64,000 bases of DNA from NCBI GenBank assembly GCA_018062705.1, contig JAGORQ010000003.1, forward strand, positions 2,270 to 66,269, read 5' to 3'. Below are positions 4,594 through 64,000 of this stretch, in pieces. Position numbers and translations under genes: made by a program. Source of the stretch: Candidatus Shapirobacteria bacterium (GTDB taxonomy: Bacteria; Patescibacteriota; Microgenomatia; UBA12405). The notes beneath the pieces are model-generated. The model worked only from the letters and a program-made list of their open reading frames with translations. It had not been told where the DNA came from and made no database searches. Every line of letters starts with the position of its first letter. Within the stretch, counting starts at the first letter, position 1.

Positions 4594-4643
4594 TTTTGTC
4601 TGTCATTCCCGCGAAAGCGGGAATCTATATAAAAATTAACAAT

Positions 4644-4659: not shown

Positions 4660-4764
4660 ATGACTTCTATCTTATCCGCCACCCCAAGTGCCCGTCAACT
4701 ATTAACTAGTGTAACAATGTATCCCCAATCCCCCTCAAACACCCTGAACAATTTATTTATACAC

Positions 4765-26702: not shown

Positions 26703-26998
26703 CACCAAACATCTTTTTTCCTGTCTTTACGGATTACGTATTACGGTTTACGGATTACGTCTTTTTGACACGTTGACCCACTAGTATCCGACATGCTTTA
26801 CCACCAAACATCTTTTTTCCTTTTTTTCGGTCATTAGTAATTAGTCATTAGTAATTAGTAATTTTGTTCCATTGACCCACAAGTATCCGACATGCTTTGT
26901 CCCCAAACATCTTTTTTCCTGTCTTTTCCTCATTTGTCATTAGACATTAGTCATTTGTCATTTTGTTCCATTGACCCACTAGTATCCCTTATGCTTTA
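26703..26998. repeat. three tandem about 99-bp repeats in divergent intergenic region; conserved flanks with variable heptamer-repeat cores
   Basis: Units 26703-26800, 26801-26899, 26900-26998 share CAAACATCTTTTTTCCT and TTGACCCACTAGTATCCGACATGCTTT. Confidence 0.8.
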
Positions 26999-32100: not shown

Positions 32101-33058
32101 TCACCCTCCCCCGCGGTGTTCTTTTAACCAGTCCCCGTTTCATCAAATACGGTTCATACACATCCATAATTGTCCCCACATCTTCCGTTAGGGCCGCTGC
32201 AATATTTTCCACCCCCACTGGTCCACCACCATACTGATTTTTGACTACATCCAAATACCGCCTATCTGCATCAGACAAACCCATTTCGTCCACCCCCAAT
32301 TTATCCAAAGCCAGTTTTGATTCTTTCAAAGTTATTTGTCCATCATTGTTTATCTGGGCATAATCCCTGACTCTCCTTAATAATCTGTTGGCAATTCGTG
32401 GCGTCCCCCGCGCTCTCTTAGCAATTTCCTCAGATGCCTCTTTTTCAATTTTAGTTTTCAATACTTCGGCTGTCCGACTGACAATTTGTGCCAGATTATC
32501 CTCTCCATAAAAATCAATTTGCTGAACTATTCCAAACCGGTCTCTCATTGGGCTACTAATCAAACCAATTCGAGTAGTGGCTCCCACAATTGTAAATTTT
32601 GGTAATTTAAGTCTGACCGAGCGAGCACTTGGGCCTTTACCTAGAACAATATCCAGCGCAAAATCCTCCATCGCACTATAGAGGGTTTCTTCGACAATTT
32701 TATTGAGTCGGTGCACCTCATCAATAAACAAAATATCACCTTTTTTGAGTCCAGTTAATATGGAAGCCAAATCCCCTGCCCGCGTTAATGCCGGACCAGA
32801 GGTGATTCGAATATTTGTTCCCATTTCGGCTGCCAAAAGCATGGCCAAAGTTGTTTTCCCTAGTCCTGGCGGACCATAAAACAAAATGTGGTCTAACTGT
32901 TCTTGTCTCTCTCTCGCTGCCCGAATAAAAATATCTAGCTGGTCTTTCAATTTCTTCTGACCAATAAATTCCGACAACTTCTTTGGTCGCAAAGACAGCT
33001 CTAATTCTTTGTCTTCTAATTTTCTATTTGGATCTAAATTTTCAGTTGTTTTATTCAT
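32093..33058 (-). CDS. ruvB: Holliday junction branch migration ATPase RuvB
   Basis: [11 protein letters not shown] Walker A and full RuvB collinearity. Confidence 0.95.
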
Positions 33059-33083
33059 ACATCTTACTTCTTACATCTTAAAT

Positions 33084-33653
33084 CTATTTCCTATTTTTCA
33101 AAGCATATTCTAACTTCTCTTCTGTGGTTACCAGATCCGTCGGCACACCCTTAACCATTTGTTCAATCTCTTTTTTCTCAAATCCTAACTGTTGCAAACT
33201 CGCCGTTAAGTCATCGTCAAGCAACGGTCTTTCGTCTTTTAAATTTAACTCCCCTAGTCCACCAATTTTTGATTTTAAATCCACAATAATTCTCTGCGCC
33301 GTTTTCAATCCAATCCCCTTAATCTTTTTGAAAAAATCCACATCCGCATCACCTATTGCCTTCATAATATCCAGCGAACTTTTCTCGGCCACAATTCCCG
33401 CCGCTGTCTTCGGTCCCACTCCCGACACCGTAATCAACATTTTAAATAAATCCAATTCCTCCACAGTTTTAAACCCAAATAAAGTAATTGCACTCTCATT
33501 CATCGACGTATAAATAAACAACTTCAACTCTTTCCCTACTGTGAACTCAGCACTTTGCACTTTGCACTGTATCTCATATCCCACTCCACCCACCTCCACC
33601 TCAATTCCCCCATTCCAAATTCGGGAAACAATTCCCCTCAAGCTACTGATCAT
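33084..33653 (-). CDS. ruvA: Holliday junction DNA helicase RuvA
   Basis: MISSLRGIV... OB and HhH domains. Confidence 0.9.
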   Translation of the reverse strand: MISSLRGIVSRIWNGGIEVEVGGVGYEIQCKVQSAEFTVGKELKLFIYTSMNESAITLFGFKTVEELDLFKMLITVSGVGPKTAAGIVAEKSSLDIMKAIGDADVDFFKKIKGIGLKTAQRIIVDLKSKIGGLGELNLKDERPLLDDDLTASLQQLGFEKKEIEQMVKGVPTDLVTTEEKLEYALKNRK

Positions 33654-37386: not shown

Positions 37387-37431
37387 ATATACTCTAGGAT
37401 TAAATACATTAATTTAATGATATTTATCGCT

Positions 37432-37486
37432 AAATTAGTAATTAGTAATTAGTAATTGGTAATTAGTAATTAGTAATTAGTAATTA
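37432..37486. repeat. (TAATTAG)n heptanucleotide tandem array, about 8 units
   Basis: aaattagtaattagtaattagtaattggtaattagtaattagtaattagtaatt. Confidence 0.9.
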
Positions 37487-37507
37487 GTAATTAAAGTATA
37501 ATCAAGT

Positions 37508-38593: not shown

Positions 38594-39374
38594 GTAAATC
38601 CAACTTCCTTTTCCTTCTCCCCTTATCAGTAAAAAACGAGTAGAGCCACTCCAGTCCCATCCCCCTCACCCACCTTGGCGCTCGAGGCAATTCTCCAGAA
38701 TAATAATCAAAAGTCCTCCCCAACCCAATCACCACCCCCACCTTAAGCTCGTGAAGATGTTCGTTTATCCACTCTTCTTGTTTCTTCATTGCCCGACAAA
38801 CAAATAAAAAATCTACTTTTATTTCAAAATTAAAATCCTCGGCCTGTGCCCCTACCACTTTTAATTTTGGATATTTTTTCAAAAAATATTTCGCTGTCCG
38901 CTCCGACCTATCATCCCAACCCCCATAAAAAAACACCGTCTTATTAGTTTTCTCCGCCAAGGCACACAACTCATCGACCAAGTCTACCCCCGAAATAATT
39001 TTATTTTTATATCCTCCGCCCAAAACTTTAACCCCTTCTATCGCTCCAAAAAATATTCTTTTTACTATTTTAATAATTCGTAATTCGTCATTCGTAATTC
39101 GTAATTGAACTTCATTGGCCCAGGCTAATCCTACTCCATCAACCACGTTAACCGATGTCCGCTCTTGCAACATTTTCAAAAATTCCCCATCCTTCCATGT
39201 AGCCATCACAAACTCCGGATTCACAGTAGCTATCCAAACCGGTTTTTTAAGTTCACCCGATTCTACCATTTTTAGCAGTAAGCCCATCGAACTGCCAAAT
39301 AGTGGAATTCCGTACATATAGTCTATCTTTCCGCATTTTTCTATTATCAGTCTAGACTCTTCTCCAGTCCTCAT
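38559..39374 (-). CDS. WecB/TagA/CpsF-family glycosyltransferase
   Basis: Collinear with TagA family; in-frame heptamer insert LRITNDELRI. Confidence 0.65.
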   Translation of the reverse strand: MRTGEESRLIIEKCGKIDYMYGIPLFGSSMGLLLKMVESGELKKPVWIATVNPEFVMATWKDGEFLKMLQERTSVNVVDGVGLAWANEVQLRITNDELRIIKIVKRIFFGAIEGVKVLGGGYKNKIISGVDLVDELCALAEKTNKTVFFYGGWDDRSERTAKYFLKKYPKLKVVGAQAEDFNFEIKVDFLFVCRAMKKQEEWINEHLHELKVGVVIGLGRTFDYYSGELPRAPRWVRGMGLEWLYSFFTDKGRRKRKLDLPKFVLKTLFQG

Positions 39375-40778: not shown

Positions 40779-40886
40779 AAAAATATTCTCCTACCAAATC
40801 ATTCTATCAAAAAGAACCACCTCCACTATCACTTTCCTTCATTATTAATTATTAATTATTAATTAGTAATTAGGTATAATATCTTT

Positions 40887-43100: not shown

Positions 43101-43254
43101 AAAAATAATTAATAATTAACAATTAATAATTACTAATTAAGAACAACTGTCCATTCTCTGATGATTGAGCAATCCAATCATCACAAGTTTTTTGTATTGA
43201 TAGTTTTCAACTACTAATTATTAATTCGTAATTAGTAATTAGTAGTTAATGTTC

Positions 43255-43326
43255 GTCCCTATAGTTCAATGGATAGAACGGAGGTTTCCTAAACCTTAAA
43301 TGGCAGTTCGATTCTGCCTGGGGATA
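43255..43326 (+). tRNA. tRNA-Arg (anticodon CCT), CCA not encoded
   Basis: Manual cloverleaf: acceptor GTCCCTA/TGGGGAT, D-stem GTTC/GAAC, anticodon loop TTCCTAA, T-arm GGCAG-TTCGATT-CTGCC. Confidence 0.8.
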
Positions 43327-45289: not shown

Positions 45290-47878
45290 CTATCTAACTA
45301 CAAAGTTGACCATCCTGCCTGGCACATAAATTTCCTTAACCACCTCTTTTCCCTCCAACCACTGCGTCATCTTCGGCAACTCCTTTGCCAGTTTTATTAT
45401 TTCTTCTTGGCTTTTAACTCGTAACTCGTCACTGTTAACTGATAACTGTTCTCTGACTTTTCCATTCACCGCCACCATAATGGTAACTGACTCCTCCGCC
45501 AGATACTTCTCATCCGCCACCGGCCACTCTTGATCATGAATCGATGAAAAAATCTCGTCATTCCCGCGAAAGCGGGAATCCATTCTTTGCCACATTTCTT
45601 CCGCCGTGTACGGTGCCATTGGTGCCATTAATTTCAAAAAAGTCTCTAAATCATTTCTCGAAACCATTTCTTTGTTATCTTCAAAATCATTTAATAATTT
45701 CATCAATTTTGCCACTACGGTATTGTATCCAAAACTTGCCATATCTTCGGTAATACTTTTTATGGCTTTATTAATGATTATCAGTAGTTCTTTATTACTG
45801 TCAGCAGACTTATTATTTAATTGCTCATTAGTAATTCGTAATTCGTAATTCGTAATTGATTTTTCCACTCTATCCAAAAATCGTTTCACCCCCATGAGAG
45901 TCTTCTCATTCCACGCCATCGTTCCATCAAATGGTCCCATAAACATCAAATACATCCTCACTACATCGACCCCGTACTTATCCGCTACCACCTCTGGCAC
46001 CACCACGTTCCCCTTCGACTTACTCATCCGATTATTGTCTGGTCCCAAAATTACCCCATGGGAAATTCTTTTAAAATATGGCTCGGGTAACTCTTTGGGT
46101 ACTGCGCCAATGTCGTGCAGAAACTGGTAAATAAACCTCGAATACAAAAGATGCAGTGTGTTATGTTCATCGCCACCTATGTAGACATCCACCGGACCCC
46201 AATATTTAATCATCTTTTGGGATGCCAGCTCTTTATTGTTGTGCGGATCCATATATCTTAAAAAGTACCAGTCACTCCCCGCCCAATTTGGCATCGTATC
46301 AGTTTCCCGCACTGCATCACCGTCACAAACTGGACATTTGCAATTCACAAACTCTGGAATTTTTGACAATGGTGACTTGCCATCATCCGTCGGCTCGTAA
46401 GCCTCCACCTCTGGCAACACAATCGGCAACTGTTCTTCCGGCACCGGAATCCACCCCACATTTTTCAATAAATTATTTTTTTCGTCTTCATTTTGGATTT
46501 TAGAATTTAGAATTTGGGATTTTTGATTTTCTGCACATTTATTACAGAAAATCATGGGTATCGGCTCACCCCAATAATGCTGTCTAGAAAAAATCCAATC
46601 TCTTAAGTGATATGACACCACTCTCTTCCCCCAACCCTTTTCTTCAAAATAATCCATCGTCTTCTGCATCGCCTTCGTAAAGTCCATTCCATTTAAAAAA
46701 TCAGAATTCACCATTACACCCTTATCACCCGAATGAACTTGAAAACATTCTTTTTCAACATCCCTCTCTTCTCCATCAACTCCATCTACCACTTTAATAA
46801 TTGGGATTCCAAACTTTTTGGCAAAATCCCAATCTCTCTGGTCATGACCTGGACAACCTTGAACTGCGCCAGTCCCAAAAGTCGCCAACACAAAATCAGT
46901 TATCCAAATTGGAATCTCTTTACCATCAACATGATTTATTGCATAAAGCCCAGAAAACACTCCTGTCTTTTCTTTTCCTAATTCAGTTCTTTCAATCTCG
47001 CTCTTTCGCCTTGCTACTGATATATACTTTTTTATTTCTTCAATCTGTTTCTGATCAACACCAAACTTCCCCGACACGATATCCTGCACAAACTTGTGTT
47101 CTGGTGCCACTACCAAAAAAGTCGCCCCAAAATTTACCGGTGTTGTTGTAAAAATAGCCAGTTTCTCACTCGTGCCCTTAACTTGGAAATCGATATTTAT
47201 CCCCTCTTTTCTCCCAATCCAGTTTATTTGTGCTTGTTTCACTTTCTCAATAAAATCCGTCTTCGCAAGTCCCGACACCAATTTATCTGCATAATCAGTT
47301 ATTTTTACTATCCACTGGCTGATGTTTCTTCTCGATACTTCAGAATGACACCGCTCGCACTTCCCATCGACAACTTCTTCATTGGCCAAACCAATTTTAC
47401 AACTTGGACACCAGTTAATCGGCATCTCCTCTTTGTAGGCCAAACCCTTTTTAAATAATTGAACAAAAATCCACTGTGTCCATTTATAATAGTCTGGGCT
47501 AGTCGTATTTACCTCCCTCTCCCAATCAAACGAAAACGCCAACCGTTTCATCTGACTTCTAAACATATCGGTATTTTCCTTGGTCACTTCTTGCGGTTTC
47601 CGCTTCATCTTTATCGCATAGTTTTCCGTTGGCAAACCAAAGGCATCCCAACCCATCGGAAACATCACCTCATACCCCTGCATTCGCTTAAATCTGGCAT
47701 AGACATCTCCACCAGTAAACGAAAAAGCATGACCTACATGGAGACCCGATCCTGAGGGATAAGGGAACTCATTTAGCACATAAAACTTCCCTTTGCTAGC
47801 TACTCTTTTACTATTTTTTTTGCCCCACTCAGTAATCCATTTTTTCTCGATTTCTAAAAACTTTTTATCTTCGTTCAT
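45290..47878 (-). CDS. leuS: leucine--tRNA ligase
   Basis: HVGHAFSF (HIGH) and KMSKSKGN motifs, editing domain; three in-frame heptamer inserts and one in-frame family-B hairpin (SRFRGNDE). Confidence 0.95.
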   Translation of the reverse strand: MNEDKKFLEIEKKWITEWGKKNSKRVASKGKFYVLNEFPYPSGSGLHVGHAFSFTGGDVYARFKRMQGYEVMFPMGWDAFGLPTENYAIKMKRKPQEVTKENTDMFRSQMKRLAFSFDWEREVNTTSPDYYKWTQWIFVQLFKKGLAYKEEMPINWCPSCKIGLANEEVVDGKCERCHSEVSRRNISQWIVKITDYADKLVSGLAKTDFIEKVKQAQINWIGRKEGINIDFQVKGTSEKLAIFTTTPVNFGATFLVVAPEHKFVQDIVSGKFGVDQKQIEEIKKYISVARRKSEIERTELGKEKTGVFSGLYAINHVDGKEIPIWITDFVLATFGTGAVQGCPGHDQRDWDFAKKFGIPIIKVVDGVDGEERDVEKECFQVHSGDKGVMVNSDFLNGMDFTKAMQKTMDYFEEKGWGKRVVSYHLRDWIFSRQHYWGEPIPMIFCNKCAENQKSQILNSKIQNEDEKNNLLKNVGWIPVPEEQLPIVLPEVEAYEPTDDGKSPLSKIPEFVNCKCPVCDGDAVRETDTMPNWAGSDWYFLRYMDPHNNKELASQKMIKYWGPVDVYIGGDEHNTLHLLYSRFIYQFLHDIGAVPKELPEPYFKRISHGVILGPDNNRMSKSKGNVVVPEVVADKYGVDVVRMYLMFMGPFDGTMAWNEKTLMGVKRFLDRVEKSITNYELRITNEQLNNKSADSNKELLIIINKAIKSITEDMASFGYNTVVAKLMKLLNDFEDNKEMVSRNDLETFLKLMAPMAPYTAEEMWQRMDSRFRGNDEIFSSIHDQEWPVADEKYLAEESVTIMVAVNGKVREQLSVNSDELRVKSQEEIIKLAKELPKMTQWLEGKEVVKEIYVPGRMVNFVVR

Positions 47879-48095
47879 AATTATAATGTTATTCTATCCT
47901 TCTTTTTTAGAATTTAGAATTTAGAGTTTAGGATTTTAATTGATATTAAAAAAGCCCCTCTTGGGGGCTTACCAAAAAATGCCCCCCAATCAACTAAGAA
48001 GTAAGGCAATCAACATTTTTTGCATAGGAAATTATATCACAGTCTAAAATATACATATCTGTTATTTATTTCTCTATTTTCCAACAAATATCTTC

Positions 48096-49987: not shown

Positions 49988-50875
49988 TTACAAGTGCGCT
50001 CTGTTTTTTAATAAAAAATAAATTATGATGATGTACCATCCAACTAGCATCATCCAATTAAATTTAATATCTATCACCCCCACCCCACTTCCTCCTACCT
50101 CAATCACCCATCTCAAATACTTTAGTCCAGGTAAAGCCAGCCAAAAAAATATTTTTAACCCAGTCACCATCCCAATTCCTCCAATCACCGTCAAGAATTC
50201 CACTAGTGGTACTACCAACAAATTAGTAGCCACCCCCACCAAACTAATTTTTCCAAAAACTAGAGCTAACACTGGTGTTATCAGTATTGTTACCCACAAA
50301 GAACTAGTTACTGTTTCTATCACCACACCTTTTTTGTTTGATTTTTCGGCTAACAATACTCCTCCAAATGCCAACATTGTCAACCAGAAGCTAACTTGAG
50401 TTAACACCCTAACATCAGCCAAAAACATAATAAAAACCAACAATATAATCGCCCTGCTTTTATTAAATTTTCTCCCTACTAGCTGGGCACCGTATTTTAT
50501 TAATACCAGTAGACCAGCCCTCAACACCGGTATTTGCCACCCCACCAAAGACGTATACTCAACCAACAAAATTAGCCCCAAAATAATTGCCCTCCGTCTT
50601 CCCAAATATTTTGCCCACCACTCGATTGTCATTGTCGCCAACAGCATCACATTTGCTCCCGACACCACTACCAAATGAATTAGCCCACTATTTTGCAACT
50701 CTGTTTTTAGACCAGCACCCGCTTTTCCTAGATCACCCAGTATCATTCCACCTAGTAATCCAGCCTCTTCAAACGGCAGATTTCTCTGAATCACTACCAT
50801 CAAACTATTCTTGTCTACAAACTTGTAGATCAGAAAAACAGCGAGAACTAGTACTAGCCAGCTATTTATTTTCAA
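49988..50875 (-). CDS. comEC: ComEC/Rec2 competence membrane-channel domain protein
   Basis: GLIHLVVVSGANVMLL competence-domain motif, multi-TM. Confidence 0.7.
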   Translation of the reverse strand: MKINSWLVLVLAVFLIYKFVDKNSLMVVIQRNLPFEEAGLLGGMILGDLGKAGAGLKTELQNSGLIHLVVVSGANVMLLATMTIEWWAKYLGRRRAIILGLILLVEYTSLVGWQIPVLRAGLLVLIKYGAQLVGRKFNKSRAIILLVFIMFLADVRVLTQVSFWLTMLAFGGVLLAEKSNKKGVVIETVTSSLWVTILITPVLALVFGKISLVGVATNLLVVPLVEFLTVIGGIGMVTGLKIFFWLALPGLKYLRWVIEVGGSGVGVIDIKFNWMMLVGWYIIIIYFLLKNRAHL

Positions 50876-51410
50876 GGTAATTTTTCCTAATAGAATATAA
50901 CTTCTCAGTCAACCCACCCTCTTGGGCAAATTTCTCAATTTCTACCTTAATTTGTCGATCCAGCAAAAAAGTCACTTGATGGCACAAAGTCAACAGAAAG
51001 TTTGCATCCACTTCGGGCTTTCCTGTCAGCTTAGGTCTTTTTATTAAGTTTCCTAAGTTACCTAAGTTTCTTAAGTTGCTTAATTCATAAGCAAATTGTC
51101 GAAATTTTGTCACCCTAGGATCTGTTTTCTGATAAAGATTTAGTCCTTTTTGCCTCAAAAAATCCTCATAGTCCATTAGCAATTCTTCAAAAGAAGCCTT
51201 CGCCACGCCTAGCAGTTTTATTAGTCCTTTCTTGGAAGTTTGTTCCTGTCCCACTCCCTCCACAATATTTTGTTTACCCGATCTAGCTGCCTGTTCCATC
51301 TGATCGCGAGTTCGCGATTTATAGTCAATATTATTTTCCACAAAATCCATAGTCAAATCATGTATCATTTCGGCATATCGGTAAGATAGTAAGTATTTAA
51401 CTTTATTCAT
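50862..51410 (-). CDS. four-helix-bundle-like protein (23S rRNA IVS protein family-like), between comEA and comEC
   Basis: QNIVEGVG...LLGVAKASFEEL resembles TIGR02436 family; in-frame heptamer insert NLRNLGNLGNL. Confidence 0.4.
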   Translation of the reverse strand: MNKVKYLLSYRYAEMIHDLTMDFVENNIDYKSRTRDQMEQAARSGKQNIVEGVGQEQTSKKGLIKLLGVAKASFEELLMDYEDFLRQKGLNLYQKTDPRVTKFRQFAYELSNLRNLGNLGNLIKRPKLTGKPEVDANFLLTLCHQVTFLLDRQIKVEIEKFAQEGGLTEKLYSIRKNYLENK

Positions 51411-52060: not shown

Positions 52061-52717
52061 TTGCTACACTTAATTGTGTCAGCTTTTATCATTATTTTCC
52101 TACTTACCTCAACAGCTTTGTTTGGCTTCGGCATTTCCCTAACACCACTTGTTAATTTTACCCCTCAGTTAATTGCTCTAGTCGGCATCCTCTTTGTAGT
52201 TTTTTTTAAAAATAAAAAAATCTATCTATACCTCCTCGCTCTACTAACCAACTTGATTATTTTTTCTACCGGCGGACTCAATTCACCTGCCTTTTTTCTC
52301 ACCTATTTTTCCTTATTTTTAATTGCTTTTCAAAATTTACCCTCAGTCACTCTCGGCTATTCACTGGCACTAATTTTACTTTTATCTCAATCGCTCAACT
52401 CACCTCTATCACTGATCCCTCTTTTATCACTTTTACTCATCACTCCACTTGTTTGGTTCACCGGCCATGAATTTCTTCAAAAAATTAAAACTGAAAAAAC
52501 CATTAGCCAGGACGAAACCGACTTCCTCCTTTGGCTCAATTTAAAGTTCAAAACTGGCATCACCACTATTGCCGACCTCGCCTCCCAAGTCGCCTCCGAC
52601 CCATCACTTTCACACTCCCAAAAAGAAAATCTCAAAAAAATTAAAAGTAGCGCCCACAACCTACTCAATTCCGCCACCAAATTATCCGCCGAAATTAGCG
52701 ATCAGGACAATGAATAA
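52061..52717 (+). CDS. hypothetical polytopic membrane protein (TTG start)
   Basis: Five or more hydrophobic helices; 8-bp overlap with next gene. Confidence 0.4.
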   Translation: MLHLIVSAFIIIFLLTSTALFGFGISLTPLVNFTPQLIALVGILFVVFFKNKKIYLYLLALLTNLIIFSTGGLNSPAFFLTYFSLFLIAFQNLPSVTLGYSLALILLLSQSLNSPLSLIPLLSLLLITPLVWFTGHEFLQKIKTEKTISQDETDFLLWLNLKFKTGITTIADLASQVASDPSLSHSQKENLKKIKSSAHNLLNSATKLSAEISDQDNE

Positions 52718-53474
52718 AAAATTATTTTTCGTTTTATTCTTACTTCTTACATCTTACTTCTTAAATCTTAATGCTCCGCCCGCCAGGGCGCAACATTTCA
52801 CCTCTACTAATTACATCATCGATTGGGGTAATTTTAATATCACCTCTGGTTCCAAAACTTCTACCAGCTTTAACCTCACCGACACCGTTGGCCAAAACGC
52901 TCCTGGTGCCAACACCTCCACCAGCTACACTCTTAAATCGGGCTTTCAGTATATTTACGATACTTTTAATCAATTTTCTTTCCAAATCAGCAGTCTTTCC
53001 ATTCCCCTAGGCACCTTGGTGCCCGGTGTCGGCACTTCTGCCACCAACACCCTCACCATTACTACCCCCTCTGGTCATGGTTACGAAATATACGCCCTCG
53101 AAAATCACCCACTAGCCCTACTCTCCTCTGGCACTACCATTCCCGACACGAAGTGCGACTCCAACACCTGCTCCGAGACTAGTTCTGGTGTCTGGACCAG
53201 TTCTTCAGCTTATGGTTTTGGTTTCAACACACTTGGAACTAATAGTAGTGGTGCGATTACCCACGTCGGCACCTCGGGTATTTTTACCGACTCAACTTAT
53301 TATCGTCAGTTTGCCAATATTCTCGCCGGTGAAACACCTCAGGTTATTATGACGGAAAATTCTCCAGTCAAAAATCGCACCGCCCAAGTTACCTACAAAT
53401 CCCTCATCTCCGGCATTCAATCTGCCGGCGTTTACCAAAACGCAATTACTTTTATTGCTATACCTAAATACTAA
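52710..53474 (+). CDS. secreted protein; signal peptide encoded by CTTAAAT-type heptamer repeats; C-terminal domain shared with 54910-56394
   Basis: ATG at 52710 (track ORF extends upstream to 52569); MNKKLFFVLFLLLTSYFLNLNAPPARA signal; C-term IPDTKCDSNTCS..WTSSSAYGFGFN homologous to 54910 protein. Confidence 0.5.
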   Translation: MNKKLFFVLFLLLTSYFLNLNAPPARAQHFTSTNYIIDWGNFNITSGSKTSTSFNLTDTVGQNAPGANTSTSYTLKSGFQYIYDTFNQFSFQISSLSIPLGTLVPGVGTSATNTLTITTPSGHGYEIYALENHPLALLSSGTTIPDTKCDSNTCSETSSGVWTSSSAYGFGFNTLGTNSSGAITHVGTSGIFTDSTYYRQFANILAGETPQVIMTENSPVKNRTAQVTYKSLISGIQSAGVYQNAITFIAIPKY

Positions 53475-53478
53475 TACA

Positions 53479-53925
53479 TAGATTTAAGAAGTAAGATTTA
53501 AGATTTATGAATAACACAATAAAAAGTTTTACAGATTTATTTTCTTGGAAAGAAAGTCACCAACTAGTATTAATGGTCTACAAACTTTTAAGAAAATTTC
53601 CTCAAGAAGAAAAATATGCGCTTGGTGATCAAATGCGACGAGCCTCAATTTCTATAACCAGTAATATTGCTGAAGGGTTTGGCAGACAATCGATCAAGGA
53701 AAAAATTCAGTTTTACTATTTAGCTCAAGGATCTCTAACTGAAATAAAAAACCAATTAATTACTTCAAGAGACTTGGGTTACATATCTGGTGAAGAATAC
53801 GATCAAATAATCAAACAGGCAGATTTAGCACACCAAATCCTCCAGGGACTAATTACCAAAACTAAATCTTATTTGAAATAATATTTTATTCTTAAATCTT
53901 ACTTCTTAAATCTTAAATCTAAATT
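53479..53925. mobile_element. candidate cassette: 4HB gene bounded by 22-bp perfect inverted repeats (GATTTAAGAAGTAAGATTTAAG ... CTTAAATCTTACTTCTTAAATC)
   Basis: Left IR 53479-53500, right IR about 53888-53909 are exact reverse complements; built from CTTAAAT heptamers. Confidence 0.45.
53507..53881 (+). CDS. four-helix-bundle protein (TIGR02436 / 23S rRNA intervening-sequence protein family)
   Basis: SITSNIAEGFGRQS...FYYLAQGSLTE signature. Confidence 0.8.
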   Translation: MNNTIKSFTDLFSWKESHQLVLMVYKLLRKFPQEEKYALGDQMRRASISITSNIAEGFGRQSIKEKIQFYYLAQGSLTEIKNQLITSRDLGYISGEEYDQIIKQADLAHQILQGLITKTKSYLK

Positions 53926-53975
53926 AAAATATGTTTTTTGTTTTATTCTTAAATCTTACGTCTTAAATCTTAACT

Positions 53976-54854
53976 ATGGATTTTAATCTCACAATCAGTC
54001 CCGCACAAGCCGAATATTTGGTCAAACCCGGCGCGACTATTATTCAGGCCTACACTGCCACCAATAATTCTCAAAACAATTTGATTCTCAAAACCAGTGT
54101 TGAACCCTGGGTCCCCAAAGGCACTGATGGTTCTGTTGATTATCAAAATGCAACTGCCAACTCCGATCTCCAATTTTCATTGGGTAATTCCGACCTGCAA
54201 CTTGGCCAAAATTTTACCCTCAAACCTGGCGAAAAACGCCAGCTCGTTCTCAAAATAAAATCCAACCCCAACTCTGAACCAATCGATTCTTATTACACTT
54301 TTTTCCTCACTCAAGACCAGAGTGGCTCTCTTGGTGGCTCTGATAATCAGGCCCTGGCTCAAGCCAAAATCGGCTCCCATTTGCTTTTATCTTATTCCCC
54401 CACCGAAAATTATCCCGAAACTGCCACCGTCAGCCAACTTAATGTTTTCCCTGGTCTGATCGACACGTTTTTTCCTAAAATTAATATTTCCGGTGAAATT
54501 ACCAACACCTCGACCCACTTTTTCAAAACCGATGGCAAAATCACTGTCACCAAAGGCGGTGCCACTATCAAAGAATTAAAACTCTTTCCTCACAATATTC
54601 TAGCTCAAAATTCCCGATCAATTAATTGTCTTCAAGACAAAGATACTCAAATCGACTGCACCCTCTCCCCACCCTATTGGCCCGGCCTCTACACTGCCAC
54701 CCTCGAGCTCAACTCCCCCATCAAATCCACCCCACTGTCAATTAATTTTTATGTGTTTCCGTATACAGTGGTGGCTTCGATTATTTTTCTAACCTCTATC
54801 GGTTACTTATTACTACGTAAAAAATCAATCAAAAAACAACTTTCTTCCAGTTGA
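53976..54854 (+). CDS. surface protein with C-terminal TM anchor, no signal peptide in current frame
   Basis: Beta-rich ectodomain, C-terminal hydrophobic anchor + KKSIKK; upstream in-frame remnant MFFVLFLNLTS-stop at 53931-53966. Confidence 0.45.
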   Translation: MDFNLTISPAQAEYLVKPGATIIQAYTATNNSQNNLILKTSVEPWVPKGTDGSVDYQNATANSDLQFSLGNSDLQLGQNFTLKPGEKRQLVLKIKSNPNSEPIDSYYTFFLTQDQSGSLGGSDNQALAQAKIGSHLLLSYSPTENYPETATVSQLNVFPGLIDTFFPKINISGEITNTSTHFFKTDGKITVTKGGATIKELKLFPHNILAQNSRSINCLQDKDTQIDCTLSPPYWPGLYTATLELNSPIKSTPLSINFYVFPYTVVASIIFLTSIGYLLLRKKSIKKQLSSS

Positions 54855-54909
54855 CACCTACATCACCACGCTATATCTTTAATTGTATAGAAATATATAC
54901 ACCTAATTA

Positions 54910-56394
54910 ATGAAATCGAGCCTGATAAAACTGGTTGTACTAGCAATTTTAATGTCCGGTGTTTATTTGGCTATTCATCCAAAAAAATTAGTCTCTGCCC
55001 CACCCACTAACGTCAAGGACGTTTTGAGCAATTCTCAACTGTCCTACTTTGGCCGTCTAGGAGTTGGCAATAGTCAAGGTTCGTCCATTCTTACCATCAA
55101 TCTTGATTCTGGCACTCAACCAAACATCACTACTAACAACCTATTCGTCGGCGACACCATTGCTATTGGTACTACTGGCGCTGGTGCTGGTTCTACCGGT
55201 CCTACCACCAAATACATCGTCAAAGACATTGCCAATACTGGCGTTTTCCAAATCAACACCGGCCTGGGTCAAAGCAACACCTTTGTTGGTGCAGCCATTA
55301 TCGCCACCCGCTCAGCTATTCACACGATCACCTTTACTCCTCAATCAAATTCAACCGGCGGTTTTTGGCAGTTTTTGATCAAAGCCACCAGTCGTGCTGG
55401 AGAGGAATATAACGACGGCACACCCGACCAACAAGGCTTCGATTTAGGTCAAGATGTTGGCGGCACCACAGTAGGTTTGGGTACACGACTTAAGGTTACC
55501 GACGTCACTTGTCCCAACTGGGGTATAGGTACTACTACTGCTTATAGTGTTGGCACCACCGCAGTGGTTGATGGCAGTTCTTACCATGTCATCACCTGTT
55601 CGCTTGGAGTTGGTGGTACCAATCAAGTTGGTGTCGGCTACTCAGCCTCTATCGGACGCGACCTCGCCACCGGTAGTCAGCTAATTAACCCATCGGCTGC
55701 CAACGCCCACACTGAAGGTAACGCCGATGTCTACACTTTCTATCTGCGTCATTTAGATAATTCCCAAACATTAATTTCCTCTGACACTCTTCAAGGAAAA
55801 ATTGCTGTTGTCGAAGCTGTTCGTGTTACTGCCACTGTCGACCCGACTCTTACCTTCACTATCGACGCTACCGGCGTTGGTGTTGGTGCCACCCCTTGTG
55901 GTTTAAGTGCTTTTGGCGCCCCAGCCGGCAATACCACCGCCACAGCAGTTTCTTATGGATCACTCGCCCTCGGATCTGCCAACGATTTGGCCCAACGTCT
56001 CTCTTGTGTTACCAACTCAGACGGTGGTTATGTTGTCACTGCTTATGAAGATTCACCGATGCGTAATATTGCCGATGGTACCACTATTCCCAACACTGAT
56101 TGCGGTGGTAATGGTTGCACTGCCTCAGGAGTTGGAACTAGCTGGACTACTTATACTGCCTCCGGCTGGGGCTATACCATGCACAATATCAATGTTACTA
56201 ACCCAATTTTTAGTTATGGCAATTACCGTCCTTTCGGCAGCGGTTCCAGCAACGCCCAAGAAATAATGAAAAATACCGGTGTGCCTACCGCCACTGAACG
56301 AGCCTATATCTGCTACCGTCTAACTGCTTCCACTACTCAACAAGCTGGTAATTATGAGAGTAAACTTGTTTACACTGCCACTTCTACCTTCTAA
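54910..56394 (+). CDS. secreted Thr/Gly-rich protein
   Basis: Signal peptide, C-terminal Cys-containing domain shared with 52710 protein. Confidence 0.5.
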   Translation: MKSSLIKLVVLAILMSGVYLAIHPKKLVSAPPTNVKDVLSNSQLSYFGRLGVGNSQGSSILTINLDSGTQPNITTNNLFVGDTIAIGTTGAGAGSTGPTTKYIVKDIANTGVFQINTGLGQSNTFVGAAIIATRSAIHTITFTPQSNSTGGFWQFLIKATSRAGEEYNDGTPDQQGFDLGQDVGGTTVGLGTRLKVTDVTCPNWGIGTTTAYSVGTTAVVDGSSYHVITCSLGVGGTNQVGVGYSASIGRDLATGSQLINPSAANAHTEGNADVYTFYLRHLDNSQTLISSDTLQGKIAVVEAVRVTATVDPTLTFTIDATGVGVGATPCGLSAFGAPAGNTTATAVSYGSLALGSANDLAQRLSCVTNSDGGYVVTAYEDSPMRNIADGTTIPNTDCGGNGCTASGVGTSWTTYTASGWGYTMHNINVTNPIFSYGNYRPFGSGSSNAQEIMKNTGVPTATERAYICYRLTASTTQQAGNYESKLVYTATSTF

Positions 56395-56454
56395 ACTAAA
56401 TTTACAAATCACAAATCTACAATTTCCAAACAATTACCAATTACCAAATCACAA

Positions 56455-57471
56455 ATGAAACATATTAGTCAAAATAAAAAAAATATTGGAACTTGGAAAT
56501 TGTTATTTGTATTTTGTTTGGAATTTGTTTTTTGGAATTTGAAATTTACTCAAACGGTCAACGCGCAGAGCGCATTGGGTTTGAGCGCCATTCCTCCCCG
56601 CCTCGAGCTCACAGTCAAACCTGGTGAAGTAGTCACCAAAGAAATTAAAATTAGAAACGAATCAAAGAATGTAAGAAGCATTACAGTATCTGCTCGTGAT
56701 TTTATCGTCACCGACGATGCCGGCACCCCCATTCAAATTGAAGGAGATTCAACCCAAAATCGTTGGGCATCCAGCAATTGGATTAGTGTCTCCCCCTCTT
56801 CTTTTCGCCTTGATCCCGGTGAAACAAAATCATTAATGTTGACTGTCATTGCTCCAGAAGAAGCTCTTCCTGGTGGACACTATGCCATGGTACTTCACAG
56901 TCCCAAAAATGAGGCTGTTTTAAACGACACCGGCTCTGTCATTCAAACCAATGTTGGCACCCTCGTGTACATCACCGTGCCGGGAGATATTACTGAAAAA
57001 GCCCTAGTCAAAGATTTTACCGCCCCCAAATTTTCCGAATATGGACCTGTCGACTTTAAAACCAATATCACCAATTTGTCAGATATTCATATTGCCCCAA
57101 TTGGTAGTGTTGACATCAAAAACCTATTTGGTGGTCGTACCGCTTCGCTCCCTCTATCCAATACCAACATCTTTCCCCAAACCAGTCGCGAGTTCACCAA
57201 CACTCTAGCTCGCAAATGGTTGTTTGGTCGTTACGCCGCCACCCTCAATGCTGGCTATGGCACCACTGGCCAAGCCCTGACTGCCACCATATTCTTCTGG
57301 GTAATTCCCTGGAGACTAATTACTCTCGCTTTAGTAGCCTTAGCGTTAATTGTCACCATCTTTATTCTGGTCCGTCAGCGTCAAACTCCCCCTCCAGAAT
57401 CAACCGACACTCAGGTTGAAGAGCTTGAAAAAGAACTCGCCAAATTAAAACAAAAATATAAAGACCGCTAG
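56455..57471 (+). CDS. cell-surface protein, DUF916/DUF3324-like with C-terminal TM anchor
   Basis: Signal peptide, LELTVKPGEVVTKEIKIRNES... pattern, C-terminal TM + charged tail. Confidence 0.4.
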   Translation: MKHISQNKKNIGTWKLLFVFCLEFVFWNLKFTQTVNAQSALGLSAIPPRLELTVKPGEVVTKEIKIRNESKNVRSITVSARDFIVTDDAGTPIQIEGDSTQNRWASSNWISVSPSSFRLDPGETKSLMLTVIAPEEALPGGHYAMVLHSPKNEAVLNDTGSVIQTNVGTLVYITVPGDITEKALVKDFTAPKFSEYGPVDFKTNITNLSDIHIAPIGSVDIKNLFGGRTASLPLSNTNIFPQTSREFTNTLARKWLFGRYAATLNAGYGTTGQALTATIFFWVIPWRLITLALVALALIVTIFILVRQRQTPPPESTDTQVEELEKELAKLKQKYKDR

Positions 57472-57483
57472 AAAAGTAGATTT

Positions 57484-58293
57484 ATGATTTTCGTCGTCCT
57501 GGTCTTATTCTTAAATCTTAAATCTTACTTCTTAAATCCTTTTCCTCTCCAGGCTATCGCTTCTTCTTCACAGAAATCTGTCGCCATATCCGCCTCTATT
57601 GGCATCAATCGAGTCACCATTCATGGCTACACTTCACCCAACAGTCGAGTCGAATTAAATTCGCCTCGGGTTTTTGCTGTTACTTACAGCAATGATACCG
57701 GAGAGTTTGTCTTTGATAAAACCATACTTCCCAAAAACCCTTCAGATCTTTGCCTGACTTCGATTAATGTGGCCCAAATTCGCACCACTCCAGTGTGTAT
57801 CCCCCCACCTCCATCTACCAACTACCACACCAATATTGGCCCCATATTACTACCTCCTACAGTTGCCCTCGACACCTCGACTATTAAACCAAACAGTACA
57901 GCAATTATTAGTGTTCTAGCCATCCCCAACTCAACAGTAGACATTTATTTCTTTCAAAACTCTCACCACGCCTCAATTTTTCCTTCAGCCCTAGCTTTCT
58001 CTCTCCCCAAAATATCCACCACCACTTCAGCAGACGGCACCTACTCACTTAGTTTACCTACCACTTATTCTAGTGATTATCGAGTTTACGCTAGCGTTTT
58101 TTATCAAGAATTTGCTTCTCCCAAATCAAACACCCTCCTCTACAAACTCCCTTCTCTCTGGTATCTTTTTTGGATAGCCAATCAATATCAAATAATCAGT
58201 TTTATATTTTTAACCTTAATTATCGGTATAATTATCTATTTGATATATTCAAAACAGTATGGACCAAAACCCAGATCAACAGTATCAAAATAG
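57484..58293 (+). CDS. surface protein with heptamer-encoded signal peptide and C-terminal TM anchor
   Basis: MIFVVLVLFLNLKSYFLN signal from CTTAAAT repeats; C-terminal TM. Confidence 0.45.
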   Translation: MIFVVLVLFLNLKSYFLNPFPLQAIASSSQKSVAISASIGINRVTIHGYTSPNSRVELNSPRVFAVTYSNDTGEFVFDKTILPKNPSDLCLTSINVAQIRTTPVCIPPPPSTNYHTNIGPILLPPTVALDTSTIKPNSTAIISVLAIPNSTVDIYFFQNSHHASIFPSALAFSLPKISTTTSADGTYSLSLPTTYSSDYRVYASVFYQEFASPKSNTLLYKLPSLWYLFWIANQYQIISFIFLTLIIGIIIYLIYSKQYGPKPRSTVSK

Positions 58294-59769: not shown

Positions 59770-60192
59770 ATGCTTCAATCTTTTCGCACCTGGCTTATTT
59801 CCAAAAAATACACCGAGTCAACTGTCAAAAACTATGTCACCGATATCAATCGCTATCTTGATTTTGTTGGTCCCAGCTCGAATGTTGCCCACATTTTTTT
59901 AGACTCAGTATTATCAAACTATTTGTCGCAAATATCCTTCGATATTAACTACCCCCGCTACTTAGCATCTCTTAACCAGTTTTGCCAATTTGGCATTTCT
60001 CAAAACATCATTTCCCAAAACCCTCTCAAAAAAGTTAGACACCAAATTGAAGCCACCCCTCAAACCGACCTAAAACATCTTTTAACCGAATTTTCCCAAT
60101 ATTTAATTAAACACAAAAGTTCTGATTCAACTATAAAAAACTACATCAATGATGTTAACTTATATATCAATTGGCTAAACTCTGAATCTTAA
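59770..60192 (+). CDS. N-terminal segment of giant envelope protein: two phage-integrase SAM-like (core-binding) domains
   Basis: TVKNYVTDINRYLDF and TIKNYINDVNLYINWL repeats; ends at TAA 60190-60192 but downstream +1 frame continues. Confidence 0.55.
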   Translation: MLQSFRTWLISKKYTESTVKNYVTDINRYLDFVGPSSNVAHIFLDSVLSNYLSQISFDINYPRYLASLNQFCQFGISQNIISQNPLKKVRHQIEATPQTDLKHLLTEFSQYLIKHKSSDSTIKNYINDVNLYINWLNSES

Positions 60193-60193
60193 A

Positions 60194-63100
60194 GCAATAT
60201 TTAACCAGTCTAATTTTGAAAAGTACCTTCGTCTAAAACAGACAGAGGGTCTTTCGCTCTCCAGTCTAAAACGGAAACAATCTTCGCTCACATCGTTTCA
60301 AAAATTTTTAGTCAAAAAAGGCTATCTTGATCAAATTTCTCCACTCCAAGTTGATCTTCACAAAACCCCAACTTTATCCTCTTTGCCCACCATCAATCCT
60401 CAACCCGCCAAACAATCTTTCTTGACTGGCTATATCCTTACTGCTTTAGTAGCTTTAATTTTCACTGGATTAGGTTTCGGACTTTATTATCAAACAATTG
60501 TCCGTTCTACCAAAAATCTGGCATTTTCAACTGCCGCCTCCCCTGTCCGTCCCGGGCGTATTCTTTCGTTTCAGGGTCGACTTACTGATTCGGCTGGTAA
60601 CCCTATCACCAGCTCTACCGGGATTGTCTTCAAATTGTTCAACAATAGTATTGGCGGTACTGAACTTTACAACTCAAATATTGGCAACAGTCAAACCGTC
60701 GTCCCCGACACCAATGGTATTTTTTCTGTCGTCATAGGTTCAAGTCATGGCACTGAAATCCCCTCTACAGTCTTCTCTGAAAATCAAAACGTCTACTTAG
60801 AAATTACTGCTGGTGGTGAGACCATGAACCCTCGCCAGCCTATCGCCACTGTCGGTTACGCTCTCAACTCAGAAACTTTGCAAGGCCTGCCTCCTTCTGC
60901 TAGCGGTTTAAAAAACACAGTGATGGTCATCGACGGCTCTGGTAATCTTAATCTAGGTGAAACAAGCCCTTCAATAATTTCCAATTCTGGCACTCTAGGT
61001 ATTGAGGGTCAGGCCATGCTTCTAAAAACTGGCTCCGGATCAGCCGGCAATATTACCATTGCCCCTGATGCTGGTGGCCAACTCAATCTATCTTTTGGTA
61101 GTACCTCACCCAGTAACGGCGGTTTAATCAACATTACCAACGCCAATTTTGCTGCCGGTAACATTATCAACGCTAGTATCAACAATGACAATCGTGGTTA
61201 CAACTTTGTCAGTTTTAATAACTATGACGTCGGCACTACCCAAACCGCCTCTCGCTTTTCCGTCGACTCATACGGTAATACTTCAGTTGGTGGCACATTG
61301 ACTTTGTCAGGCACTGCAGTCGGGGTGGGCACCTCCGCCTTGTTTATCGATGCCTCCACTGGAGCAGTTTCTCGTCGGGTACTCGGATCTATGGCTTTTG
61401 ACTCTGGTACTTACGATAATTATCAGCGCTGGATTGCCAATGTCGGTACCAGCAACACCACTATTAGTTCCGGCACCACTCTCTCTTATGCTGCTGGCGC
61501 CGGTCTATCAATCTCACTTATAGGCAATACTCTTACTTTCACCAATACTAGTACCGGCACCACCTACTCCTTTACCAACGGACTAACAAATAATTCCGGA
61601 ATTGTCGGACTCGGCGGCACTTTTACTCAAAACTCTCAAATTGGTACCAGTAATTTTTCTTTGGCATTCCTCGGTTTGGGAAACAGTCTAGGTCTAGCCC
61701 AAAGCTCGTCAGGAAACGTTGGCATCGGCACTTCCAGCCCCTCCCAAAAATTAGACATCAACGGCTCAGTCAGCATTGGTGGATCACTCGCCATCGGCTC
61801 AACCTTTCTCGTAACTAATCTCAATGCCGATTTATTAGACGGACTAAACTCCTCTTCCTTCCTTTACACCGCTGGTACTGGTATCAGTTTGTCTTCCGGT
61901 AATGTCTTCAGTAACATCGGCGTCACCTCCATTCTTGGCACTGCTAATCAAATCACTGCTTCTAATCCTACAGGTGCAGTTACCCTATCTCTACCACAAA
62001 ACATCGATACTGCTGCCAATGTTCAGTTTGGATCACTCTATCTATCTGCATCAGGTATTGGTCTTTCTACTGCTAGCAATGTATCAGTTGGTGGCACGCT
62101 TATCCTTGCCGGTACACCAGTCGGCACCGGAACCACCATTCTTTATATTAATTCAAACAATGAAGTCACTCGAGGTACCTTTGGTCCTTACGAATCACCA
62201 CTAACTTTTCAAAACGGCCTCACCAGATCTACCAACACTATTTCAATTGGAGGAACTTTAACTCAACATACTCAAATTGGCACAAGTAGTTTCGGATTAT
62301 CGTTTCTCGGTTTGGGCAACAGCATCGGTTTATCCCAATCAAGTTCTGGTTGGGTCGGAATCGGCAATTCTTCACCCAACTATCAACTTGATGTTACTGG
62401 TGATGCTGGTATCGGTGGCAACTTAAATGTAGGTGGCACACTAACTCTAGCTGGCACACCAGTTGGAACTGGTACAACCATTCTCTATCTAAATGCCAGC
62501 AATCAAGTTACCAAAGGTGTCTTTGGTCCTTACGACAATTACCAACGATGGGTATTGTCAAATTCCGGCACCCAAGCAAACATTACTACTGGTGTTACCT
62601 TAGCAATTGGGTCAGGTGGAGGTATCAATACTTCTCTGGTTGGCACTTCACTTACTGTAATTAATACAGGTGTTACCAACATCTTTGGCACTGCCAATCA
62701 GATAACTGCTTCCGGTTCAACTGGGGCCATCACTCTTTCTTTACCCCAAAATATTGACACCGCCGCCTCAGTCCAATTTAGTTCCTTATCTCTATCATCA
62801 ATTGGTACGGGTTTGTCTACCGCCGGCGGTCTCCGCGTCGGTACTTCACTTAGTACAGCTGGTAACTTAACAATTGGCGGTACCCTAAATCTTTCCAACA
62901 CCAATACAGTTGTCTCAACCGGGACTACTGCACTATTAATCGACACTAGTGGCAATATTAGCAAAAGAATGCTTGGCTCCATGGCCTTTGATTCTGGCAC
63001 TTATGACAACTATAACAATTGGGGACTCCGAAATAATAGTGGTGCTACTACACCAGTCACCTCTGGGTTAAGTGTTAACTTTGTTAATGGTGTTGGTATC

Positions 63101-64000
63101 TCAATTTCTCAAATTGGTACCTCTATTTCCTTTGCCAACATTGGTGTCACCTCCATTCTTGGTACAGCTAATCAAATAACCGCTAGTAATCCTACCGGTG
63201 CAGTTACTCTCTCTCTACCTCAAAACATTGATACTGCTGCCAATGTTCAGTTTGGCTCCTTAGCTTTATCATCTGCTGGTATCGGGCTGTCTACTGCTGG
63301 TGCGGTTAGAATTGGAACTTCATTGACGGTTGGCTCCAATTTATCAGTCGGTGGCAGTGTTACCTTATCCTCCCTACCGGTTGGTGTTGGCACCTCAATT
63401 GTTTACATTAACTCTTCAGGAGTCTTGACCCAAGGATTTTTTAACACTGGAGTCGGCACAACTTATGCATTCCAAAACGGCCTGAACGATCCCGGAACTC
63501 ACATCATCGGACTCGGTGGCACCTTAACTCAACACTCCCAGATTGGTACTAGCAACTTCACTCTCTCATTTTTAGGTTTAGGCAATACACTTGGTCTGTC
63601 AATTGGTCCAAGTGGTTTTGTCGGTATTGGCACCTCTTCACCTACCCAAAAACTCGATGTGAATGGCAACGTTGATATTGGAGGTACACTCTTTCTCACC
63701 GCCACCCCTGTTGGTACCGGCACTTCAGCCTTATTTATCGATGCTTCAACTGGAACTGTCTCTCGTCGAGTTCTGGGTACCATGGCCTTTGATTCTGGCA
63801 CTTATGACAATTACAACAATTGGGGTCTCCGAAGTAATAGTGGTGCTACTACACCAGTCACCTCTGGGTTAAGTGTTAACTTTGTTAATGGTGTTGGTAT
63901 CTCAATTTCTCAAATTGGTACCTCTATTTCCTTTGCCAACATTGGTGTCACCTCCATTCTTGGCACTGCTAATCAAATCACTGCTTCTAATCCTACAGGT
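60194..64000 (+). CDS. giant repetitive surface protein (continues beyond window): third SAM-like domain, TM helix, then Gly/Thr/Ser-rich repeats; likely continuous with 59770-60192 via +1 frame break
   Basis: Frame open from stop at 60176-60178 to window end with no stop (more than 1260 codons); encodes FEKYLRLKQTEGLSLSSLKRKQSSLTSFQKFLVKKGYL before any start codon; TM GYILTALVALIFTGLGFGLYY. Confidence 0.6.
63007..63215. repeat. about 200-bp near-identical intragenic repeat (second copy 63803-64000; related copy 61905-62025)
   Basis: Direct comparison shows more than 90 percent identity over about 200 bp. Confidence 0.8.

Follow-up and report, generated by a model that had tools for sequence, protein, structure and literature searches.

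A 64,000-nt stretch of the Candidatus Shapirobacteria genome assembly GCA_018062705.1 (contig JAGORQ010000003.1, positions 2,270 to 66,269; hereafter the window) carries a compact cassette, in which a promoterless gene of the four-helix-bundle (4HB) family PF05635/TIGR02436 is ended on both sides by inverted arrays of a private heptamer within a pilus operon resembling the pam operon of the Candidate Phyla Radiation (CPR). Such inverted heptamer arrays are a hallmark of PF05635 genes across phyla. We surveyed 80 loci with relatives of the 4HB protein, picked from species-representative genomes by protein similarity only, and with the copies in L002, L003, and the window added, the set comprised 85 4HB genes. 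For each gene, an inverted repeat (IR) score was obtained by aligning its start region with the reverse-complemented stop region. The preliminary description of the window had proposed looking for inverted heptamer blocks at other 4HB genes, and the outcome was strongly positive, with matched inverted arms abutting the start and stop codons in 80 of the 85 genes. The median IR score was 35, compared to 16 for 265 control open reading frames (ORFs) of the same loci, and 94% of the 4HB genes scored above the 95th control percentile (Mann-Whitney p = 4e-38). When the 5′ flank of one locus was aligned with the 3′ flank of another, the median score was 16; thus, arms taken from different loci are not matched. 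We found no description in the literature of inverted heptamer arrays bracketing PF05635 genes family-wide, and the signature appears to be new.

The IR around the 4HB gene of the window is real and perfect. It had been described as 22 nt long with coordinates that were 2–3 nt off; the repeat search gives 24 nt (AGATTTAAGAAGTAAGATTTAAGA and TCTTAAATCTTACTTCTTAAATCT, the 5′ arm and arm C of Table 1), within which the two 22-mers occupy 53481–53502 and 53891–53912. With mismatches, the IR reaches 43 nt at 81% identity (53479–53521/53879–53921), and this extension reaches into the 4HB gene, covering its ATG and initial codons at the 5′ end and its stop region at the 3′ end. The local-alignment score of the flanks is 49, far above the 18.5 ± 2.4 of shuffled flanks, and the IR is therefore not due to chance. 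The 5′ arm starts 6 nt past the stop codon of the upstream gene and finishes 3 nt before the 4HB ATG, and its tandem heptamers (units AAGATTT/AAGAAGT) run straight into the start codon as AGATTT-AAGAAGT-AAGATTT-AAGATTT-ATG. Arm C begins 9 nt past the 4HB stop codon and is followed by a second 3′ arm, D. The repeat search recovered arms C and D as a 47-nt direct repeat with 85% identity and 57-nt spacing, and the sequence of arm D is identical in an independent Logan contig.

By its model matches, the encoded protein is an unambiguous member of the PF05635/TIGR02436 family. It matches PF05635 ("23S rRNA-intervening sequence protein") with E = 3.7e-36 and 124 bits (cut-off 33.8) and TIGR02436 ("four helix bundle protein") with 118.9 bits (cut-off 24), and the pentameric Xcc0516 (PDB 2GSC) is its sole solved relative by sequence (E = 7.9e-21). 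An NCBI "four helix bundle protein" of a Ca. Shapirobacteria metagenome-assembled genome has the identical sequence (100%), which places the window in a CPR bacterium; an exact-sequence look-up of the protein returned no contig. The family motif is GxxRxxxSxxxNxxE (Zhang & Ye 2013; Lin et al. 2006; quoted in PMC3936711). Its RxxxSxxxNxxE part corresponds to R45, S49, N53, and E56, which are invariant in 34 relatives, and the first G of the motif is Q42 in this subfamily.

Across the survey, the 5′ arms occupy about −28 to +2 relative to the ATG and the 3′ arms 0 to +32 relative to the stop codon, with a median arm length of 27.5 nt, or ~4 units, among the 85 4HB genes. Their lag-7 self-identity is 0.49–0.51, compared to 0.31 in control flanks, and the inverted orientation outscores the direct one in 78 of the 85 genes. 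The 5′ arms are consistently purine-rich and C-poor on the sense strand. The heptamer unit is private to each gene (AGCAAAA, AGTGAAC, GGGGCTA, CGAAACT, etc.), and two adjoining 4HB genes in L041 have the units GTATTNA and CGCATAA. Bracketing arrays are also present in cultured organisms, with GGGTGTA at a Calothrix plasmid gene, AGGTTCA in Riemerella, and GAGGACG on an Azospirillum plasmid. The top-scoring control was a comEA gene flanked by the palindromic element TCAACCTTTAAGGTTGA (L031, minus-strand ORF, 4260–4886 in reverse-complement coordinates). The next five controls, ORFs of ~110–120 amino acids (aa), were themselves found to encode divergent PF05635 proteins and to have their own heptamer arms, which indicates that the arm signature finds the family blindly.

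These results bear on the objection that the arms are incidental and represent slippage-made heptamer microsatellites in the spacers on either side of a gene. Heptamer arrays are indeed plentiful, with 27 in the 64-kb window compared to 0.05 expected from shuffles; 7% of the control ORFs also have a periodic upstream flank, and an excess of heptameric simple sequence repeats has been reported in other bacteria (PMC4692102, PMC4679880). However, the same-locus controls have no matched inverted arrays, arms of different loci do not match, the signature recovers further PF05635 genes blindly, the arms overlap the start and stop codons, and the empty sites described below have no array. An incidental origin, already disfavored by these observations, is improbable.

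The 4HB cassette is wedged between its neighbors. The upstream gene is co-oriented with the 4HB gene in 70 of 79 cases and the downstream gene in 68 of 84, and the median gaps of 34.5 and 38 nt are taken up by the arms alone. A promoter and terminator scan revealed no excess of such sites, and nothing upstream of the 4HB ATG convincingly resembled a promoter. With no room or signal for a promoter or terminator of its own, the cassette must be transcribed with the host operon. Rfam models detected no rRNA in the window or in the 40 related loci scanned (of 80 fetched), and the arms match no known RNA family.

Table 1. Features of the window discussed in the text, in window coordinates
Feature	Position	Strand	Remarks
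5′ arm	53480–53503	+	Purine-rich tandem heptamers (T)AGATTT-AAGAAGT-AAGATTT-AAGA; imperfect extension to 53521
4HB gene, 124 aa, 23S rRNA intervening sequence (IVS) protein family	53507–53881	+	PF05635, TIGR02436, and 2GSC matches
3′ arm C	53890–53913	+	Exact reverse complement of 5′ arm; imperfect extension 53879–53921
3′ arm D	53941–53975	+	Diverged tandem duplicate of arm C; ends at ATG of gene 53976
Solo arm copy A	52733–52772	+	Pyrimidine-type; encodes signal-peptide h-region of PamT-like gene 52710–53474
Solo arm copy E	57505–57538	+	Encodes part of signal peptide of gene 57484–58293
Solo arm copy, 5′-arm orientation	33055–33086	−	Between ruvA and ruvB; directly upstream of ruvB
Upstream flank: PamT-like (CPR pilus tip pilin-like) secreted protein gene	52710–53474	+	Weak model matches
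Downstream flank, 292 aa	53976–54854	+	C-terminal transmembrane (TM) helix, no N-terminal signal peptide; paralog of 56455–57471
Second 4HB gene, suffix type	50862–51410	−	TIGR04258 "four helix bundle suffix", 59.5 bits (cut-off 40)
Example heptamer arrays	1279–1317, 4117–4155, 26726–26965, 37429–37497, 39070–39108, 40852–40879, 43109–43251, 47903–47937, 56429–56458		
In-frame arrays in ribonucleotide reductase (RNR) gene 1514–4093	2076–2117, 2937–2973, 3876–3903	−	
In-frame arrays in leucyl-tRNA synthetase (LeuRS) gene 45290–47878	45820–45864, 46487–46530	−	

Gain or loss affects the cassette as a whole. The 4HB gene had been suggested to be the cargo of a small IR-bounded insertion; the gene with its inverted arms is a discrete insertion/deletion unit, but the insertion is not recent and shows no target-site duplication. 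A metagenome scan with the downstream protein identified four syntenic contigs, representing three distinct relatives (L086 and L087 are identical matches), which lack the 4HB gene and both arms. The flanking genes at these empty sites are separated by 14 nt (L084), 2 nt (L085), and 3 nt (L086/L087), and the gene order comEC-comEA-membrane protein-PamT-like gene-downstream gene is retained. The empty sites are free of any array, which indicates that gene and arrays are gained and lost together. In the same gene order, the cassette occupies the same spot in the window, in L002 (4HB protein 79% identical), and in a JGI contig (80%). The heptamer units of the L002 cassette differ from those of the window, and together with the 79% protein identity this indicates an old cassette rather than a recent insertion. 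In a tree of the four flanking proteins, L085 and L086 form the outgroup, and the window, L002, and L084 are a poorly resolved trio, whose groupings split 61%/38%/0.5%. The two carriers, window and L002, were sisters in 1 of 200 bootstraps, and the cassette-free L084 grouped with one or the other in 199. As the carriers are rarely sisters, at least two events are required: either the cassette was gained twice at this site, or it was gained once and precisely lost once. The comparison of filled and empty sites, with a spacer of only 2–14 nt, revealed no target-site duplication. A terminal IR and presence/absence polymorphism are both present, and only the ~40-nt arms are multicopy within the window.

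Contrary to what had been proposed, the cassette does not sit in place of the signal peptide of the downstream gene 53976. A recent IR-bounded insertion that destroyed this signal peptide would fit several observations. Array D read from the ATG at 53931 gives MFFVLFLNLTS, which resembles a signal peptide, before an in-frame TAA at 53964 ends it; this frame is shared with gene 53976 and is in frame with MDFNLTISPAQA, ending in an AxA-like site. Additionally, the paralog 56455 has a signal peptide, and so do all Pam components of M. amalyticus (bioRxiv 10.64898/2026.03.03.709456). However, the orthologs of the downstream protein in cassette-free genomes start with MFNLTLSPP..., at the same residue and without a signal peptide, 2–14 nt past the upstream stop codon and with an in-frame stop upstream; the ortholog in L002, a cassette carrier, likewise has none. 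The shared start in empty-site genomes indicates that no signal peptide was displaced, and the age of the cassette argues against a recent event. We regard the destroyed-signal-peptide explanation as refuted and give it almost no weight. The protein lacks a signal peptide in 5/5 genomes, which sets it apart from the Pam components described in the above preprint. Phase variation of gene 53976 through its upstream array was also considered and appears unlikely, as no gain or loss of units frees the frame of ATG 53931 of stops, and near-identical contigs are equal in unit number.

We consider that the segment 53480–53913 (to 53975 with the duplicated 3′ arm) is probably, if by no means certainly, an IVS-type cassette outside rRNA that is processed by RNase III. 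In the operon transcript, the arms would pair as a helix of at least 24 bp, which would bury the 4HB ribosome-binding region and ATG and could serve as an RNase III substrate, and the cassette RNA would be excised from the host transcript or insulated from it. Such excision or insulation would explain why the cassette is tolerated inside operons, as it is inside rRNA. Pairing and cleavage are proposed on the precedent of Coxiella, Leptospira, and Salmonella. The predicted RNA duplexes of the 5′ arm have energies of −32.7 kcal/mol with arm C and −33.0 kcal/mol with arm D, and in the minimum free energy fold of the region the 4HB ORF is enclosed by a terminal stem, with the 5′ arm paired with the arm D copy. 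The sense-strand purine bias of the 5′ arms and of the solo arrays before start codons also points to an RNA-level role, at least for upstream arrays.

Several observations weigh against this processing model. The RNase III signature motif was not found in the window, which spans 64 kb only and is silent on the rest of the genome. The arm mismatches show no excess of G·U-compatible changes on the sense strand (61 vs 53), and thus RNA-level selection for pairing is not demonstrated. The arm is also present as solo copies, and most heptamer arrays of the window are unrelated to any 4HB gene. In the subfamily of the query, the core nnGATTT is kept among proteins that are 57–80% identical, which suggests sequence-specific recognition rather than mere complementarity; the ATG and stop codon there are in register with the arrays. 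On the Pseudanabaena galeata plasmid NZ_CP112875.1 (L091, 1286–1965), a 4HB gene located between cas6 and cas4 is preceded by AAAAGCT (~12 copies) and followed by AAAAGCC (~10 copies), with the arrays in direct orientation, and two Nostoc 4HB copies have unmatched arrays; a stem, therefore, cannot be the whole story.

The main rival to RNA processing holds that a protein, which may be the 4HB homopentamer, or another factor recognizes the arrays in a sequence-specific manner. The arms would then act at the DNA level or as protein-binding sites, i.e., as mobility termini, operators, or iterons, and the solo arrays would be further sites or footprints. The even distribution of mismatches with respect to G·U pairing, the kept unit sequence among related cassettes, the direct-orientation arrays of Pseudanabaena, and the solo arm copies all favor this possibility, as does the common end A(T/A)GAATAAAAC of six homologous copies in the window. 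The arm length of ~4 units is near the subunit number, five, of the 2GSC pentamer (Lin et al. 2006 as cited in PMC4990558). A match between solo arrays and the local arm unit occurs in 19% of cases, compared to 9.6% for the arms of other loci, but this 2-fold enrichment is weak and not decisive. Moreover, stand-alone PF05635 proteins are not on record as binding nucleic acids, the neighborhood encodes no transposase, recombinase catalytic domain, or reverse transcriptase (RT), no target-site duplication is visible, and the sense-strand purine polarity of the 5′ arms and of solo arrays before start codons is more in keeping with an RNA-level role. Recognition by a protein is a serious alternative, yet we hold it to be rather unlikely.

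Two further readings take the 4HB protein as the accessory protein Avd of a diversity-generating retroelement (DGR) or the IR as the border of an invertible phase-switching segment. The protein does match the bAvd model PF22296 (28 bits) and the Avd equivalog NF033474 (29.3 bits) weakly, neighboring surface-protein genes are plausible targets of a DGR or of phase variation, and the IR length is typical of invertons. However, the equivalog score is far from its cut-off of 80, no RT or recombinase catalytic domain is found among the neighbors, which include only an N-terminal SAM-like integrase fragment (59770–60192), and 81–89% of the 4HB genes are co-oriented with their neighbors, compared to the roughly 50% that frequent inversion would give. 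Both readings were rejected on these grounds and are highly improbable. Within 53300–54100, the sole stretch scanned for repeats, there was no long repeat pair.

The arm of the cassette recurs elsewhere in the window as solo copies. As previously observed, the heptamers of the IR recur in neighboring signal peptides, with copies A and E forming part of the codons for the signal peptides of genes 52710 and 57484, respectively. The 5′ arm finds its closest complement in copy E (34 nt, one mismatch; predicted duplex −42.1 kcal/mol), and for copy A a duplex of −35.7 kcal/mol is predicted; the purine-type 5′ arm could pair with these pyrimidine-type copies if they were on one transcript. The third solo copy reads TAGATTTAAGATGTAAGAAGTAAGATGT-ATGAATAAAACA on the gene strand and provides the ruvB start codon, and it is identical in the near-identical strain contig L001. 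The six copies (5′ arm, arms C and D, copies A and E, and the ruvB copy) align over ~40 nt with a mean column identity of 76%, and the non-array end they have in common corresponds to 4HB terminal codons. The solo ~40-nt copies have been co-opted as the ruvB 5′ leader and as signal-peptide codons. The unit numbers of the ruvB array and of arrays C and D are unchanged in Logan contigs of SRR11088367, possibly from the same population.

The heptamer arrays of the window belong to at least six unit families (GATTGAA, CTAGAAA, TAATTAG/TAATTCG, TTTAGAA, ATGATAA, CTTAAAT, AATTACC). Many stop 0–24 nt before a start codon with the purine-rich strand as the sense strand, and one adjoins the tRNA at 43255–43326. 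The arrays in the RNR and LeuRS genes are translated, e.g., as "LETETRNEKLET" and "ITNYELRITNEQ", and the RNR array at 2937–2973 corresponds to a 14-aa insertion that is not present in the Thermotoga maritima RNR (PDB 1XJE). The signal-peptide core of the PamT-like protein is array-encoded in the window (copy A), in L002 (4245–4281), and in L086 (2781–2821), with the units CTTACTT/CTTAAAT, TAACTNN, and CTACTTT x5, respectively. The different units at the same site indicate that arrays turn over at a fixed position. Independent Logan contigs of SRR11088367, from the same or a near-identical population, end exactly inside arm C (L094, 1–83; ~53893) and array A (L095, 1–20; ~52759), which indicates that dispersed arm copies break short-read assemblies.

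A broader proposal would unite these observations. PF05635 genes with their inverted arms may be widespread, undescribed selfish cassettes, of which the rRNA IVSs would be a special case that landed in rRNA. The 4HB pentamer would be a trans-acting partner of the arrays that binds or spreads them, and solo ~40-nt copies would be seeded into 5′ leaders, signal peptides, and housekeeping ORFs. This proposal is speculative, and we think it doubtful as a whole. If true, it would explain the heptamer excess in Xanthomonas, Nostoc/Calothrix, Beggiatoa, Bacteroidota, and CPR bacteria.

The host locus (52710–58293; L002 4221–9851) is, judged by its protein similarities, a distant relative of the CPR pam pilus operon. 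Besides the PamT-like gene and genes resembling those of Pam pilins, it encodes two proteins whose C-terminus carries a TM helix. The 52710 protein weakly matches the Pam pilin C-terminal domain NF058581 (E = 0.0022, below the cut-off), its orthologs in L002 and L086 match PamT NF058579 over the full length with E = 1.4e-12 and 7.6e-10, also below the cut-off, and the ortholog of 54910 matches the Pam pilin C-terminal domain. From the C-terminal TM helix described for PamC and PamD, we infer that 53976 and 56455 are PamC/D-type chaperones. Further downstream, the ORF 59770–60192 (140 aa) encodes two phage-integrase N-terminal SAM-like domains and no catalytic domain, and an open frame that starts with a similar SAM-like segment runs from 60179 to 64000 and continues past the window end (>1270 codons).

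The second 4HB-like gene of the window lies between comEA and comEC, and the overlaps of 4 bp with comEA and 14 bp with comEC given in the preliminary description were confirmed. This gene is of the suffix type and has no heptamer arms (IR score 12). It is not found at the comEA/comEC junction of L002 (2935–2966), where the two genes overlap directly. The junction is a hot spot for wedged small genes, and in L086 it holds a REP-associated tyrosine transposase-like gene (1048–1557; 70.8 bits, just below the cut-off of 80).

The cassette represents a known protein family and a known architecture in a new context, an mRNA operon. The rRNA IVSs and their S23p/4HB proteins have lacked an explanation since the early 1990s, and the heptameric-repeat excess of many bacteria is likewise unexplained; our survey ties the two puzzles together and makes them testable. 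Normally, members of the family have the IVS architecture, with inverted heptamer arrays on both sides of the 4HB ORF, and in the 40 rRNA-scanned related loci all cassettes lie outside rRNA, typically between co-oriented genes. The arm signature provides a simple sequence-based means of finding such cassettes. For CPR genomics, heptamer arrays matter as a source of leaders, of codons for signal peptides, and of in-frame insertions into essential enzymes, and as a cause of broken assemblies.

Transposable elements of the miniature inverted-repeat type (MITEs) and in-frame palindromic elements, such as the Rickettsia palindromic elements (RPE), are small, non-autonomous, and IR-bounded. The cassette is likewise small, non-autonomous, IR-bounded, and intergenic, and solo arrays lie in frame in conserved genes (RNR, LeuRS). 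In contrast to MITEs and RPE, it carries a conserved ORF, its heptamer unit differs per cassette, and no target-site duplication was seen. We know of no cognate transposase for it. With the Avd proteins of DGRs, the 4HB protein appears by sequence to share a homologous, pentamer-forming four-helix-bundle fold family; unlike Avd, it scores below the Avd model cut-off and has heptamer arms instead of an adjacent RT and template repeat.

Heptamer arrays just before start codons, sometimes in inverted pairs or within ORFs, have been reported in Beggiatoaceae, cyanobacteria, Bacteroidetes, and Xanthomonas, without a function or a link to PF05635 (PMC4679880, PMC4692102). Like the TAACTGA arrays of Beggiatoaceae, cyanobacteria, and Bacteroidetes, the GGGAATC/GGGGAYT arrays of Xanthomonas and Nostoc, and the short tandemly repeated repetitive sequences of Calothrix, those studied here are short arrays of 7-nt units with two to six or more copies. 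The known arrays are mostly intergenic and often end before a start codon in the "forward" orientation, and the same patterns occur in the window. In contrast to these arrays, same-unit inverted arrays bracket nearly every PF05635 gene examined, including that of Calothrix. PF05635 genes wedged in cas operons were noted earlier (PMC3936711), and such genes are also known from CPR rRNA insertions.

The closest known systems are the S23p IVSs of Coxiella burnetii, Leptospira, Xanthomonas, and Brucella. The Coxiella IVS is a 428-nt element in helix 45 of 23S rRNA with an S23p (PF05635) ORF; its terminal IRs form a 28-bp stem within which RNase III cuts, and two to three tandem GACAGAT heptamers, varying in number by strain, directly precede the ATG (PMC4990558). 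Unlike these IVSs, which lie in helix 9, 25, or 45 of 23S rRNA, the cassette lies between protein genes of a pilus-like operon, its 3′ arm is duplicated, and arm copies are dispersed in other genes. S23p IVSs are excised by RNase III, as the present cassette may be. The likeness is nevertheless extensive: the same protein family (PF05635; S23p/Xcc0516), a length of ~430 nt, an ORF enclosed by a terminal IR stem of at least 24–28 bp, tandem heptamers right upstream of the ATG, no promoter of its own, and presence or absence that varies by lineage (PMC4990558).

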